From positions 7,116 through 71,115 of the forward strand of contig CAWBGV010000031.1 of the NCBI GenBank assembly GCA_963788395.1: a stretch of DNA of 64,000 nt, read 5' to 3'. Position numbers and translations under genes: made by a program. The notes below the pieces were generated by a model. The model was not told the origin of the DNA. It saw nothing but the letters and a program-made list of their open reading frames with translations, and searched no databases. Below, one piece after another: positions 42,426 to 48,091 of the stretch. Within the stretch, counting starts at the first letter, position 1; each line of letters opens with the position of its first letter. This DNA comes from Candidatus Doudnabacteria bacterium. GTDB lineage: Bacteria > Patescibacteriota > Doudnabacteria > UBA920.

Positions 42426-43194
42426 CAACTAATTTGGTCATCACAAATTGCTAGTCAATTACAAAAGATTAGAACAGACAAGGGTATATGGTGGATGCCT
42501 TGGTAATATGAGCCGATGAAGGACGTTGTAGCCTAACGAAAAGCCTCGGGGAGCTGGCAAACAAGCTTTGATCCGGGGGTGTCCGAATGGGGAAACCTAT
42601 GCACTGGAAGAGTGCATGCCTATATGTCGTGGGATATATAGCGCGGGAACCGTGCGAAGTGAAACATCTCAGTAGCACGTGGAAAATAAATCAATTGTCC
42701 GCCTTTGGCGGACATCGAGATTCCGTTAGTAGTGGCGAGCGAACGCGGATAGATATAGAAATTTATTCGTTGGACGAGTATATAGTAGTGTCCGGCGAAT
42801 AAATATCTATTAGCCCAAACCTAATTAGTGTTGTTGATATCGCAAGATTGAAACTTAAAGATTACAGTCGTTGTTAATTAGGCGTTATAAGTGGAAGTCA
42901 TTGTGAGGCTGTAACCTCACTGGGAATATAGTGTGCTGTTTAGCAGAACACGCCTGGAACGGCGGACCAAAGAGGGTGATAGTCCCGTATCGCGAAAAAC
43001 CATGCAATTTCCTGACTTTTTCTTGAGTACGACCAGACACGAGAAATCTGGTCGGAAATCAGGTCGACTAAGATCTAAGGCTAAATACTCATATTAACCG
43101 ATAGTGAACAAGTACCGTGAGGGAAAGGTGAAAAGCACCCCGGAAGGGGAATGAAATAGTTTCTGAAACCATATACTTACAAGGAGTGGAAGGC

Positions 43195-43460
43195 CGTATT
43201 CGTGTTGCGGGTTAGAAGTCTTAAGTTAGATTTTATAGCTAGTGCAAGAATTAGGTTTTTGAGAAGAATTAACCTAATTATTCTAATTTCTAATTAACCT
43301 AAATAATACCCAATATTGAAATGTCTAAAATTAGGACATTCTGATATTGTGATTTGTTTAGAAATTAGGTCAATTAGAATAATTAGAAATTTTGTCCAAT
43401 GAATTTTGCACGAGCGATAAAGTTTAATATTTAGGAAATCTTACCCGTAGCACGAATGGC
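43195..43460 (+). other. 23S expansion segment: ~250-nt AT-rich rod (TTCTAA/TTAGAA units) replacing a short hairpin (probably the helix 25 region)
   Basis: ccgtattcgtgttgcggg...cccgtagcacgaatgg closes the rod. The interior has ctaattattctaatttctaattaacctaaat ... atttgtttagaaattaggtcaattagaataattagaaatt. Confidence 0.7.
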
Positions 43461-43566
43461 TAACCGCGTGCCTATTGAAGAATGATCCAACGAGTTAATC
43501 TTCAGCAGCTTGATTAAGTCCTATCAAGGACGAAATCGTAGTGAAAGCGAGGATGAATAGTCCGTA

Positions 43567-43677
43567 AAAGTTTATAAAGTTCTTAAAGTTAGTAAAGTTC
43601 ATAAAGTAACTGCAGCAATGCCGGTACTTTATAACTTGATGAACTTGACGAACTTTATAAACTTTATGTTGCTGGAG
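43567..43677 (+). repeat. AAGTTATAAAG-unit hairpin (family member 4) inserted inside 23S rRNA
   Basis: aaaagtttataaagttcttaaagttagtaaagttcataaagta-actgcagcaatgccgg-tactttataacttgatgaacttgacgaactttataaactttat. It lies just upstream of the conserved gttagacccgaaaccc block. Confidence 0.7.
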
Positions 43678-44192
43678 TTAGACCCGAAACCCGCGTGAGC
43701 TACGCATGGCCAGGATGAACGTTATGTAAAAGTAACGGGAGGTCCGAACCCACTATTGCTGCAAAAATAGGGGATGAGCTGTGCGTAGGGGAGAAATTCC
43801 AATCGAACCGGGTGATAGCTGGTTCTCCTCGAAATAGCTTTAGGGCTAGCGTCGAGAGTTCCCTTGAGAGGTAGAGCACTGAATGGAAACCTGCTGCGCA
43901 AGCGGTAGGCTCCAACCAAACTCCGAATTCTCAAGATTAAGATCTCGGCAGTCAGTCCGTGAGGGCTAAGCTTCACTGGACAAATGGAGAAGAATCCACA
44001 CCATCGTCTAAGGCCCCCAAATCCTAGCTATAGTGCAAAGGATGTGGGGTTGCTCATACAACCAGGAGGTTGGCTTAGAAGCAGCCATCCTTTAAAGAAA
44101 GCGTAACAGCTCACTGGTCAAGCGATCCTGCGCCGACAATATATAGGGGCTAAGCTAGGTGCCGAAGACATGGATCAGGGCGGAGCCCTGTA

Positions 44193-44338
44193 ATTCCCAA
44201 ATTACAAAACCCAAATAACAAATAAATTCCATCCGCCAAAGGCGGACAAAATTTCAAAAACTGCGATTGCGGTATATGGGTGTTTGAATTTTGTTTATTG
44301 GATATTGTTTGTAATTTGTTTTTTGAGATTTGGTGCTT
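44193..44338 (+). other. 23S expansion segment (~145 nt rod, probably the helix 45 region)
   Basis: cagggcggagccctgtaa ... ttacagagcttcgctctg closes the rod. The interior has caaaacccaaataacaaataaattcc-atccgccaaaggcggac-... ttgtttattggatattgtttgtaatttgtttt. Confidence 0.65.
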
Positions 44339-45300: not shown

Positions 45301-45462
45301 GGGCCCGCAGCGAAAGACCTCTCCCGACTGTTTACCAAAAACTTAGGTCCGTGCTAAAGCGCAAGCTGATGTATACGGGCTGATGCCTGGCCAGTGTCAG
45401 AAGGTTAAACCGGTTGGCGCAAGCTGATCGGCCAAGCCCTGATGAACGCCGGCAGTAACTAT

Positions 45463-46198
45463 GAAAGTTGTAGTTATAAAATTCGACCATTTGCGGGAAA
45501 CACTGTGCACGCGTGGACAACGACGTGCTTAAAGCTTGTAATACTCGTCTGAAAAATGGCAGTAAAAATTTACAAGATACAGTCAATCCGCAGGAAAGTT
45601 TCATTAAAGATCCATAAGGAGAACAAAATTATGGATCAAACCTGGCTTAAACAAATTCCTTTAGAAAAAGGTTATTACTTTGCTGGTTTCACTGATGGTG
45701 AGGGAAGCTTTAACGTTTCAATGCGTAAGCGGCCTGACCATACTATGAAATGGCAAATAATACTAACCTTTAATGTATCACAACGCGACCCTGTAGTGCT
45801 TTCAGAAATGAAGCGTTACTTAGGTTGCGGGAGATTCCTAAAGCGCAAAGATGGGGTGAACTGTTATATAGTTCAAAATCCGTCAGCCATCCAAGAACGG
45901 GTAATACCGTTCTTTAAGAAGTTTTCTTTTTTATCTTCAAATAAAAAAAAGAATTTCTCAATTTTTACTCAAATTGCTGAAATGGTATTTGGTAAACAAC
46001 ATCTTACAAAGATGGTTTGCTAAAAATCATTCAATTAAGGGAAACCTTAAATGAAGGCAAAGGGCGAAAGAGAAAATATAATTTAGTAGATTATCAAGGA
46101 TCTACAAATGAAACCCCTCAACGACTAAACGCCGAATCCGCCGAAATGGCGGAATGATATAGTCTGATCTTCATAGAAATATGAAGTTAACACACATG
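45463..46198 (+). mobile_element. Group I intron with LAGLIDADG homing-endonuclease gene, inserted in 23S helix 69 after the U equivalent to E. coli U1917
   Basis: Exon sequence ggcagtaactaT | ... G | aactgtcctatggtaagcgaaattcc restores the conserved GUAACUAU-AACGGUCCUAAGGUAGCGAAAUUCC block. The 5' exon ends in U and the intron ends in G. R-like tcaacgactaaa at 46118-46129 and S-like gatatagtc at 46156-46164. Confidence 0.8.
45631..46023 (+). CDS. LAGLIDADG homing endonuclease (single-motif, I-CreI-like), C-terminus truncated by a 1-nt frameshift
   Basis: AAGGAG SD 9 nt upstream, and motif YYFAGFTDGEGSF. The frame stops at 46021-46023 (HLTKMVC*), but the +1 frame continues DGLLKIIQLRETLNEGKGRKRKYNLVDY...AEMAE* to 46157, the typical family C-terminus. 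The A-run at 46008-46010 is one A short. Confidence 0.85.
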   Translation: MDQTWLKQIPLEKGYYFAGFTDGEGSFNVSMRKRPDHTMKWQIILTFNVSQRDPVVLSEMKRYLGCGRFLKRKDGVNCYIVQNPSAIQERVIPFFKKFSFLSSNKKKNFSIFTQIAEMVFGKQHLTKMVC

Positions 46199-46782
46199 AA
46201 CTGTCCTATGGTAAGCGAAATTCCTTGTCGCGTAAGTTGCGACCCGCACGAATGGCATAACGAGTAGAGGACTGTCTTAACGAACATTCCGATGAATTTA
46301 CAATGGCGGTAAAGATGCCGTCTACCCGCAGCAAGACGGAAAGACCCTATGAAGCTTTACTATAGCGTGTCATTGCAGTTTTATTTTTATTGTTTAGCCT
46401 AGGTGGGAGACTTTGAAAGCTCGGCGCTAGCTGAGCCGGAGTCAAACGGTGAAATACCACCCTGTAAAGATGAAACTGCTAACCAAGGCTTAACCTACTT
46501 TGGGACAGTGGCTCGTGGGTAGTTTAACTGGGGCGGTTGCCTCCTAAATGGTAACGGAGGCGTTTATTAAGGTAGGCTAGGCGCGGATGGAAATCGCGCT
46601 GGTAGTGCATACGCATAAGCCTGCTTGACTGCAAGGGCGGCGACCCGCGCAGGTACGAAAGTAGAAGTAAGTGATCCGATGCGTTCGAGTGGAAGACGCA
46701 AAGCCCAACGGATAAAAGTTACTCTAGGGATAACAGGCTGATCCTCTCCAAGAGTCCACATCGACGAGAGGGTTTGGCACCT

Positions 46783-47212
46783 TAACATATCGGGGTGCAT
46801 GGACAGCAATGTCCTTCCTAGTTTTTTCGTCCGTCTGTCCCGTTTTATAACGGGATGATAATAAATCGAAGAAACAATAAATAAATTCGGCTTATAACGG
46901 TGAACCCGTAATTACTCATGTGAGAATTTAAAGTTCTGAGTAAATGGAAATACCGTGGGAACCCAACACTTTTTCAGTGAATGCGAGAGTTGGAAAAGGT
47001 GTTGGAGGCAACAAATTTCGTGGGACGTATCAGTGAGTACACGAAAAGTGTTGGGCCCGTAACGACTGACCCGAAAGGGGAGATTTAAATTTATAAATTT
47101 AAATAATACGCCGACTCTTATCACAAAAAAAGCAGGTGATGGTAGCATAAGTACCTAATACCGCTGATAAGATGAAGATATAGTCTGCACCATATGAAAG
47201 TATGGAATTATG
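46783..47212 (+). mobile_element. ORF-less group I intron in the 23S peptidyl-transferase-centre region (near E. coli U2500); boundaries +/-3 nt
   Basis: The conserved block gtttggcacct is interrupted and resumes at (t)acgatgtcggctcatcacatcctgggg. R-like gtaacgactgac at 47059-47070 and S-like agatatagtc at 47176-47185. No ORF longer than 60 aa in sense. Confidence 0.7.
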
Positions 47213-48091
47213 TACGATGTCGGCTCATCACATCCTGGGGGTGAAGAAGCTCCCAAGGGTTAGGCTGTTCGCCTATTAAAGTGGTACGCGAGCTGGGTTC
47301 AAAACGTCGTGAGACAGTTTGGTCCTTATCTGCTGTGGGTGTACGAAACTTGAGTAGTCGCGTCTCTAGTACGAGAGGACCGAGACGCATAGACCTCTGG
47401 TGTACCCGTTGTCGCGTCCGCGGCATGGCGGGGTAGCTAGGTCTAGTTCGGATAAACGCTGAAGGCATATAAGCGTGAAGCCGTCTACAAAACTAGGTTT
47501 CGTTTTACGTAGTAATACGTAAGAAAGGTTCGGGGAAGACTACCCCGTAACAACGTAGTATTTTGTATTAAGTATCGAGTATTATGTAGCAATACATAAT
47601 ACAAAATACAAGATACGGTATACTATTTTATAGGCTGCAGGTGTACGCACAGTAATGTGTTTAGCCGAGCAGTACTAATCAACCGAAAGTTTTAATCTTA
47701 TATTGACTAGCGATTTGTGATCCACAAAAATTATCTTAATAGCGGATCATCCGCCGTAGTTTTTAGCGAAGGCGGATGACGCTGGAGATTTTAGTGTTCA
47801 CGTATATACAATGTTCAAACACAATCTGAAAATGTTAGCGCTCATAGGAGCACTTTTAGCGGTATTAGGACTCTTTTTTGTTCTTTCCACAAACGCAATA
47901 GCGTTAATAAAATAAGCAACTAAAGGCCTTCCTCGTCACTCTTTATTAAAGGGGCCCCCAAATTGCTTTTCACACTTTGTTTTTTCGAGCGAGAGCGAGA
48001 AAAAAAAGAGAAAAGGAATTTGGGGAAGAGGAGCACTTTATGAAGGCGGCACAAAAGAAATTTTTAATTTCTTTTGTGAAGCCGGAATAAA

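Follow-up and report, generated by a model that had tools for sequence, protein, structure and literature searches.

How does a bacterial 23S ribosomal RNA (rRNA) gene come to be 5233 nucleotides (nt) long, and what becomes of the surplus sequence? The question is raised by a 64,000-nt stretch of DNA (the window) from a Candidatus (Ca.) Doudnabacteria bacterium (GenBank assembly GCA_963788395.1, contig CAWBGV010000031.1, positions 7,116 to 71,115 of the forward strand), in which a 23S gene occupies positions 42467–47699. Here we report that this gene has a normal core, and that its extra sequence is probably of three kinds: introns that splice themselves out; inserts at helices 25, 45 and 63 (H25, H45 and H63) that resemble bacterial intervening sequences (IVS); and hairpins that are conserved in the lineage and have grown by slippage. 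An earlier description of the window (the first-pass annotation) had listed introns, long hairpin inserts (rods) and smaller inserts in the gene, and we say below how its claims fared.

A complete 23S core with discrete inserts

42467..47699, + strand: 23S rRNA gene, 5233 nt, identified by Rfam RF02541 and by co-linearity with Escherichia coli 23S

The Rfam model of bacterial large-subunit rRNA (LSU_rRNA_bacteria, RF02541) matches positions 42467–47699 of the forward strand at 2038.5 bits, against a threshold of 50, and the match spans the whole model from 1 to 2925. All conserved blocks stand in order when the gene is set against E. coli 23S, with 68% identity over aligned columns (the E. coli copy used runs 6–7 nt behind the canonical numbering). 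The first-pass claim of a complete, co-linear 23S gene about 2.3 kb longer than typical is thereby upheld. Subtracting 1168 nt of introns and the 2925-nt consensus from the 5233 nt leaves about 1140 nt of other extra sequence, and the entire excess of about 2.3 kb lies in discrete blocks, namely two introns and about nine hairpin inserts. It is the sole 23S rRNA gene of its host, an ultrasmall, Doudnabacteria-like member of the Candidate Phyla Radiation (CPR).

The protein of the first intron, once repaired as described below, led to a 407-kb contig from a Ca. Doudnabacteria metagenome-assembled genome (MAG; L004/L022), which has the gene order LysM, split ligA, 23S, 5S, as in the window, and a 23S gene of 4651 nt. 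A 33-mer common to the window, L004 and L013 retrieved 31 stretches in GTDB genomes, most of them titled Ca. Doudnabacteria and the others generic Patescibacteria or mislabelled MAGs. The comparison comprised about 35 related 23S genes, mostly from Ca. Doudnabacteria, obtained from BLAST chains and anchored extractions, and the core 23S identity of these relatives to the window is about 78–89%. Rod lengths were compared as nt between fixed anchors in conserved rRNA, and fold z-scores set the predicted fold against shuffled sequence. The CPR setting proposed at first pass agrees with these relatives, which are mostly Ca. Doudnabacteria MAGs, and insertion-laden CPR 23S genes have already been published.

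Group I introns at L1917 and L2500

45463..46198, + strand: group I intron L1917 (intron 1), 736 nt, after U1917, with a terminal G
45631..46157, + strand: LAGLIDADG homing endonuclease gene, frameshifted, Pfam LAGLIDADG_1 (PF00961)
46783..47214, + strand: group I intron L2500 (intron 2), 432 nt, after U2500, with no open reading frame (ORF) and a terminal A

The first-pass annotation had proposed two group I introns of 736 nt and about 430 nt, and comparison with relatives confirms both and fixes their borders to the base. At the site of intron 1, GTAACTAT runs uninterrupted into AACTGTCC in 26 relatives; at the site of intron 2, CACCT runs into CGATG in 19 relatives, and a homologous intron is present in 10 others (L013, L018, L025, L029, L031, L038, L039, L041, L043 and L044). 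Both introns are thus exact insertions at sites for which intron-less relatives exist, and L1917 and L2500 are known intron sites in ribosomal DNA. The Rfam group I model (Intron_gpI, RF00028) finds the 3′ core of intron 1 at 45953–46186 (36.2 bits, E = 1.3e-6) and intron 2 at 46831–47206 (30.0 bits, E = 9.5e-5), the latter with a typical AAGAUAUAGUC core; both scores lie under the 50-bit threshold. The splice-site helices can be read from the sequence. In intron 1, P1 forms between the 5′ exon GUAACUAU and GUAGUUAU, close to where the intron begins, and puts a U.G pair at the splice site; P10 forms between the 3′ exon AACU and AGUU, which adjoins GUAGUUAU. In intron 2, P1 joins GCACCU with GGGUGC, again with U.G at the splice site, and P10 joins CGAUGU with AUAUCG. 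Both introns are predicted to self-splice and to religate the rRNA.

Intron 1 ends in the guanosine (omega-G) that is canonical for the class, as do 4 homologues. Its LAGLIDADG gene, a single-motif version, matches Pfam LAGLIDADG_1 at 3.1e-19 (70.2 bits against a cutoff of 23.1) and belongs to a group of more than 2350 homologues. The first pass had called it the only genuine one among the listed ORFs of 60 aa or more within the 23S span. The 10 other ORFs tested there indeed have no Pfam match, but the LAGLIDADG gene itself is frameshifted: one C is missing after 46007, so that the C-terminal part (46008–46154) lies in the +1 frame, and the window lacks the intact reading frame of about 175–180 amino acids (aa) seen in homologues. 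In a DNA comparison with the homologous intron of L165, which is 93% identical, the window reads CATCTTAC-AAAGATGG and the homologue CATCTTACCAAAGATGG. The repaired protein has 175 aa and is 96% identical to the intact homologue P0001 over 175/175 aa; an exact-protein look-up of the 155-aa ORF as it stands returned no record. The frameshift is either that of a true pseudogene or an assembly indel. Intron 1 would have been spread by this single-motif homing endonuclease, which is now frameshifted in the assembly. One relative, L032, has a version of the intron without an ORF.

All 11 L2500 introns, those of the window (47205–47214) and of the 10 relatives, end in GUA and are followed by CGAUG, so that the last nucleotide is A and not the canonical omega-G found in intron 1. 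We assign the terminal A to intron 2 because no alternative cut restores the universally conserved GGCACCUCGAUG. To our knowledge, the Coxiella intron Cbu.L1917 is the sole precedent for group I splicing without omega-G; it is reportedly the subject of Raghavan et al. 2007, a title cited in PMC11270868. These 11 introns would offer a natural system in which to study 3′ splice-site choice. A five-way MAFFT alignment had suggested an L2500 intron in the L005 group as well, and a direct check placed that insert farther downstream.

46213..46214, + strand: additional A (GGTAAGCG) at the intron site L1931, found in the window and in no relative

One further irregularity lies in the stretch downstream of intron 1. 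At 46213–46214, within a universally conserved stretch, all relatives have GGTAGCG or carry an intron after GGT, and the window has an extra A. Because this A is unique to the window, a 28-mer spanning GGTAAGCG has no match in GTDB genomes. The A is either an assembly indel or the footprint of an imprecise intron loss. Relatives also carry inserts of 0.3–1.3 kb at three sites that are empty in the window: 46212/46213 (L004, L005, L017 and L028, that of L004 being an L1931 group I intron at 74.7 bits), 46542/46543 (L016, L021, L038 and L040) and 47318/47319 (L016, L021, L028 and L040).

Sporadic rods at H25, H45 and H63

43196..43460, + strand: H25 rod, about 130 bp of almost unbroken hairpin duplex with about 32% GC, after E. 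coli position ~545
44168..44356, + strand: H45 rod, placed by the covariance model (CM) in the loop of the hairpin at model positions 1205–1226
44923..45302, + strand: H63 branched element, closed by a 22-bp stem formed by an inverted repeat (44923–44944 / 45281–45302)

The rods described at first pass are real structures, all far better folded than shuffled sequence (z = −4.7 to −11.3). The H25 rod folds at −108.6 kcal/mol (z = −11.3). Between the anchors at H25 the window has 270 nt and 10 relatives have 28–38 nt; L028 and L044 carry inserts of their own (134 and 107 nt), and no relative has a sequence match to the rod of the window. The picture at H45 (z = −6.1) is similar, with 189 nt in the window, 29–34 nt in 14 relatives, and separate inserts in L017 (175 nt), L028 (94 nt) and the L005 group (about 120 nt). 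At these anchors 3 of 16 relatives have an H45 rod, and the insert of the L005 group comes in addition. The H25 and H45 rods appear to be dispensable, because most near relatives are without them. Both have the features by which an IVS is recognized: an extended stem-loop replaces the loop of helix 9, 25 or 45, and its occurrence is sporadic among relatives. H25 and H45 are classical sites of the IVS that RNase III removes without religation (PMC4990558; PMC2672173). The first-pass label of expansion segments, apt in so far as it denotes hairpins other than introns, suits these two poorly, for they stand at classical IVS sites and are absent in most relatives.

H63 (z = −7.8 for the region) is bimodal: 12 relatives have a short hairpin of 10–34 nt (62–86 nt between anchors), and 12 relatives and the window have 182–819 nt. 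H63 is usually reduced in CPR bacteria (PMC9297842), with which the 12 short versions agree. The match between long versions is confined to the first ~55 and last ~45 nt; their interiors are unrelated. The matching ends include a closing stem of about 20 bp, GUAUGCUGGGUAAUGG / CAUUACCCAGCAUA. A conserved terminal stem around a free interior is like the build of an IVS, by analogy with the terminal inverted repeats of those elements. No further copies of the inserts at H25, H45 and H63 were found in the window or among the relatives. All three would be transcribed with the rRNA as long double-stranded stems, and RNase III would most likely cut these sporadic rods at their stems without religation, giving a 23S rRNA that is fragmented but functional.

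Conserved hairpins with rapidly changing arms

43566..43668, + strand: H31 rod, with 9-nt repeat arms (AAGTTNATA) and a GNRA-type tip
47556..47625, + strand: 3′ rod, a 7-nt repeat hairpin with a GUAGCAAUAC tip
42694..42715, + strand: domain I insert of 22 nt (UGUCCGCCUUUGGCGGACA) at a helix tip; the CM counts 22 nt against 2 consensus positions (model 228–229)
42750..42810, + strand: domain I insert of 61 nt at a helix tip; the CM counts 61 nt at model 252–253
42829..42869, + strand: domain I insert of 41 nt in a hairpin loop at about model 282, common to L004
42902..42923, + strand: domain I insert of 22 nt, a hairpin placed by the CM at about model 313

The other rods keep their places across the lineage. 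At helix 31 (H31), 104 nt are inserted, according to the CM, in the hairpin loop of model positions 680–696 (z = −5.3), and Tandem Repeats Finder (TRF) assigns a period of 9 to both arms. Most relatives have a hairpin of 80–136 nt at the same place, of unrelated sequence, built from a repeat unit specific to each genome (TAGTTNN, AGTATTA and GATAAGA are examples; that of the window is AAGTTNATA). These are positional counterparts and not sequence homologues, because an nhmmer profile of the 9-nt family found none of them.

The 3′ rod (z = −4.7) follows the CGGGG-AAGACUA-CCCCG hairpin and precedes the last long helix; the CM places it slightly differently. Nearly all relatives have this rod, but L004 does not. 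In an alignment of 14 long versions (the window and 13 relatives), 18/30 predicted pairs have changed on both sides, and the GUAGCAAUAC tip, a GCAA tetraloop, is invariant. AG...CU pairs recur every 7 nt in 14/14 genomes, and the filler between them is specific to each genome. The combination by which an expansion segment is recognized, conserved position together with compensatory change, is found for the 3′ and H31 rods and not for those at H25 and H45.

The small inserts listed at first pass are also present, with one correction: what had been taken as a single insert at 42830–42950 is resolved by the CM alignment into two, of 41 and 22 nt, with conserved rRNA between them. The 61-nt insert contains an inverted repeat (42755–42775 / 42790–42810), and its site is occupied in L017 by an (AATCGGA)n rod. 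At every site checked, namely the four domain I inserts, H31 and H45, the CM puts the insert in an existing hairpin loop. None of the inserts contains an S23p/IVP ORF, and we reject protein-coding content in the rods on the lack of Pfam matches among the 10 ORFs tested. Matches of the rods to MIR7993, MIR8562 and SCARNA7 (E > 0.05, far under threshold) are noise from AT-rich hairpins.

TRF finds arrays of period 7–9 on the arms of the rods of the window and of the leader hairpins described below. We suggest that the H31, 3′ and domain I rods keep their position, length, hairpin shape and GNRA-type tips while their arms turn over completely, and that they may lengthen by tandem duplication of 7–9-nt units mirrored on both arms. 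The mirroring could arise by slippage with compensation or by templated correction of quasi-palindromes. Whether the H31 and 3′ rods would be excised or retained we regard as about equally likely either way.

A repeat-armed hairpin family beyond the rods

42030..42118, + strand: leader hairpin, copy 1 of the (AAGTTNATA)n family, nhmmer E = 4.5e-19, period 8–9 (TRF)
42338..42430, + strand: leader hairpin, copy 2 of the (AAGTTNATA)n family, nhmmer E = 1.3e-22

The repeat of the H31 rod also occurs outside the rRNA. The rod is 84% identical over 70 nt to a leader hairpin (42339–42406), and a further copy lies 300 nt upstream. The kinship between rods and intergenic hairpins claimed at first pass therefore holds for H31; the other rods are not kin to the leader hairpins. 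The 14-mer core of (AAGTTNATA)n occurs 19 times in the window against 1.2 expected, always in or beside the 23S gene. A profile built from the three copies (nhmmer) finds relatives in 23S domain I of L029, with E in the range 1e-10 to 1e-12, and in the peripheral loops of the L2500 introns of L029, L031 and L043 (E = 1e-10 to 1e-12). Two loops of that intron hold repeat-armed hairpins with a CUGCAG..UGCAG tip in L025, L029, L031, L038, L043 and L044. In L044 the unit of the intron loop is that of its own H31 rod, which suggests exchange or homogenization between the sites. No hairpin in a leader or an intron loop can be of use to the ribosome, and this family at least therefore looks neutral or selfish, and unlike a functional part added to the ribosome.

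A metagenome scan for two repeat units returned at least 120 stretches, mostly away from rRNA; among the matches listed, 45 fit the family profile, almost none of them near rRNA. One stretch, L135, has four intergenic copies in 10 kb (1690–1788, 2141–2233, 3705–3791 and 5940–6036), and L065 has one copy inside 23S domain I. Hairpins with (AAGTTNATA)n arms and no rRNA nearby were also seen in L051, L091, L096, L106, L125, L130, L140 and L152. A separate 18-nt hairpin with the core CCGCCUUUGGCGG stands at 42695–42712, in inverted form at 44232–44249 within the H45 rod, and at 22510–22524; a hairpin resembling it fills an intron loop in L018.

With less than even confidence, we propose that the rods form a single class of self-extending, GNRA-capped hairpin modules whose stems grow by mirrored tandem duplication of 7–9-nt units, which are homogenized within each genome and whose copies move or convert between sites; to the same tentative proposal belongs an L2500 intron clade that splices with a terminal A.

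Excision, retention or mobility of the rods

Several points weigh against our preferred explanation, in which introns splice, IVS-like rods are excised and conserved hairpins grow by slippage. Neither an RNase III gene nor its signature motif turned up in a six-frame search of the 64-kb window. With five or more sites cut, the 23S rRNA would be in six or more pieces, which is beyond anything documented for bacteria that we know of. As for the H31 and 3′ rods, their conserved GNRA tips and length are more readily expected of retained, functional helices than of spacers that are thrown away. An error-prone assembly could lie behind the frameshift and the extra A, and both introns score under Rfam's curated threshold (36.2 and 30.0 against 50 bits), although cmscan hits with E <= 1e-4 were accepted for CPR introns of this sort by Tsurumaki 2024 (PMC11270868). 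An alternative, which we consider somewhat unlikely, is that all or most rods are kept in the mature 23S as expansion segments, protruding helices like those of eukaryotes. It would suit the constancy of the H31 and 3′ rods in place, length, hairpin shape and GNRA-type tips, together with their many compensatory changes. It would also suit the sites themselves, which correspond to eukaryotic expansion-segment (ES) helices: H25 (ES7), H31 (ES9), H45 (ES15) and H63 (ES27). Hancock and Dover are said to have described slippage-generated simplicity in eukaryotic expansion segments, and the repeat arms seen here are alike. Retention is viable in so far as E. coli tolerates an unprocessed Salmonella IVS (Gregory et al. 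1996, as cited in PMC4990558). But the H25 rod, with about 130 bp of nearly perfect duplex, offers RNase III an ideal substrate; most near relatives lack rods at H25 and H45; similar repeat-armed hairpins sit in the L2500 intron loops of six relatives and in the leader, where they are of no use to the ribosome; and earlier comparisons with transcripts pointed to removal of the insertions from CPR rRNA (Brown 2015, cited in PMC9297842).

The spread of the hairpins invites another explanation: mobile palindromic DNA elements of miniature size, akin to miniature inverted-repeat transposable elements (MITEs) or repetitive extragenic palindromic (REP) sequences, would have been copied into tolerant sites, with the rods as those copies and the rRNA gene as one landing place among others. 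The two leader paralogues of the H31 rod, its relatives in domain I and in the intron loops of L029, L031 and L043, the at least 120 metagenome stretches with the two-unit motif, the four intergenic copies of L135 and the recurrence of the CCGCCUUUGGCGG hairpin at 42695, 44232 and 22510 all speak for it. We judge it unlikely all the same. Neither target-site duplications nor conserved ends were apparent at the copies, the 9-nt family is confined within the 64-kb window to the 23S gene and its edge, and the H25, H45 and H63 inserts lack copies there and in relatives. Moreover, each genome has its own repeat unit at a given helix, and in-place slippage therefore fits better than repeated insertion. 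That the extra segments are chimeric joins of the assembly, or the gene a decaying pseudogene, is highly improbable. Short-read Logan contigs from the same sample do break at the rRNA borders (L002 ends at 42591 and L003 starts at 48177) and for that reason neither support nor contradict the 23S interior, and two single-base oddities, the frameshifted endonuclease gene and the A added to a universally conserved stretch, warn of possible indel errors. Against this, the core is complete and co-linear at 2038 bits, the intron borders are exact to the base, and there is no sign of the chimeras that the first pass had named as the threat to its account: every insert stands precisely at a helix tip and pairs with itself, and independent assemblies of relatives have inserts at matching sites. 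Our preferred explanation, of a normal core with introns, IVS-like inserts and slippage-grown hairpins, remains the probable one.

Genomic surroundings

48099..48215, + strand: 5S rRNA gene, Rfam RF00001, 64.1 bits
42440..42459, + strand: 5′ half of a leader/trailer processing stem, 20 nt, 95% complementary to 47702–47721
47702..47721, + strand: 3′ half of the same stem, pairing with 42440–42459

The two complementary segments flank the 23S gene closely and probably form the pre-23S processing stem, given their position at the gene ends as in bacterial pre-23S. The leader region also contains an 11-nt tandem repeat, CGCTGATAAGA, in 3.5 copies at 42203–42242. The usual spacer tRNAs of rRNA operons are tRNA-Ile and tRNA-Ala. 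In the 64-kb window there is no 16S gene, and tRNA-Ile(GAT) and tRNA-Ala(TGC) lie at 14321–14979 on the − strand, 28 kb from the 23S gene; the rRNA genes are on these grounds unlinked.

Directly 3′ of the 5S gene, positions 48490–51126 encode a secreted-looking protein of 878 aa with two CAP domains and long Pro/Thr linkers. The gene for NAD-dependent DNA ligase is split in the window into 35186–36733 (adenylation, OB and Zn parts) and 36845–37228 (HhH and BRCT parts), and the related MAG L004 has the same split gene at 4604–6094 and 6094–6621. An exact-protein look-up of an upstream IRK-like ORF, taken from its GTG start, returned no record.

Comparison with known systems

A survey of 348 CPR 23S genes by Tsurumaki 2024 found inserts of at least 100 bp in 82% of them, with a mean of 1.3 kb, a maximum of 5.75 kb and up to 16 per gene (PMC11270868). 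Group I introns make up 45% of those inserts and are biased to the 3′ half, position 1917 included; they mostly carry single-domain LAGLIDADG_1 genes, with ORF-less and degenerate-ORF versions among them, and short non-intron inserts at known IVS sites were read as probable IVS (PMC11270868). The number of inserts is not exceptional by this measure, although the first pass had thought that of the non-intron rods notable. The 23S gene of the window resembles those of other CPR bacteria in being single-copy, in its many inserts and in having its introns in the 3′ half (Brown et al. 2015; PMC9297842; PMC11270868), and at the level of those surveys no fundamental difference separates it from them. 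It is a typical, somewhat heavily loaded member of a documented class, and taken by itself it is of little consequence, because it adds one example to a documented CPR peculiarity. Four features are not described in the accessible text of these surveys: the clade of L2500 introns with a terminal A; the tandem-repeat build of the rods with its periodic AG/CU register; the hairpin family shared by H31, the leader, intron loops and intergenic DNA; and the H63 element with conserved stem and variable interior.

The closest single textbook case is the 23S gene of Coxiella, which has an IVS of the RNase III type at H45 and two group I introns, one of them at L1917 (PMC11270868; PMC4990558). The intron without omega-G is at L2500 in the window and at L1917 in Coxiella. 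There are about nine hairpin inserts in the window, without an S23p/IVP ORF, against one in Coxiella, and splicing and RNase III cutting, which are predictions for the window, have been demonstrated for Coxiella.

As in the classical IVS of Salmonella, Yersinia, Campylobacter, Leptospira and Alphaproteobacteria, stem-loops replace the tetraloops of H25 and H45 in the window, and the rods share with those elements an AT-rich composition, sporadic occurrence among close relatives, and terminal inverted repeats that form a stem. Typical ORF-less IVS are about 90–180 nt long, and the H25 rod (about 265 nt) and the H63 element (about 380 nt) exceed them. H31, H63 and the site before the last helix, unlike H25 and H45, are not classical IVS sites, and the arms in the window are short tandem repeats. 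If all rods were excised, the 23S rRNA would be in six or more pieces; if they were retained, they would be unusually large expansion segments for a bacterium.

The expansion segments of eukaryotes and Asgard archaea (ES7, ES9, ES15 and ES27) arise from the same surface helices, evolve fast under the constraint of a hairpin and are rich in repeats. They stay in the ribosome. The bacterium that carries the window presumably has RNase III. With their conserved geometry, rapidly homogenized repeats and compensatory changes, the rods may be a bacterial counterpart of eukaryotic expansion segments, which grow by slippage.

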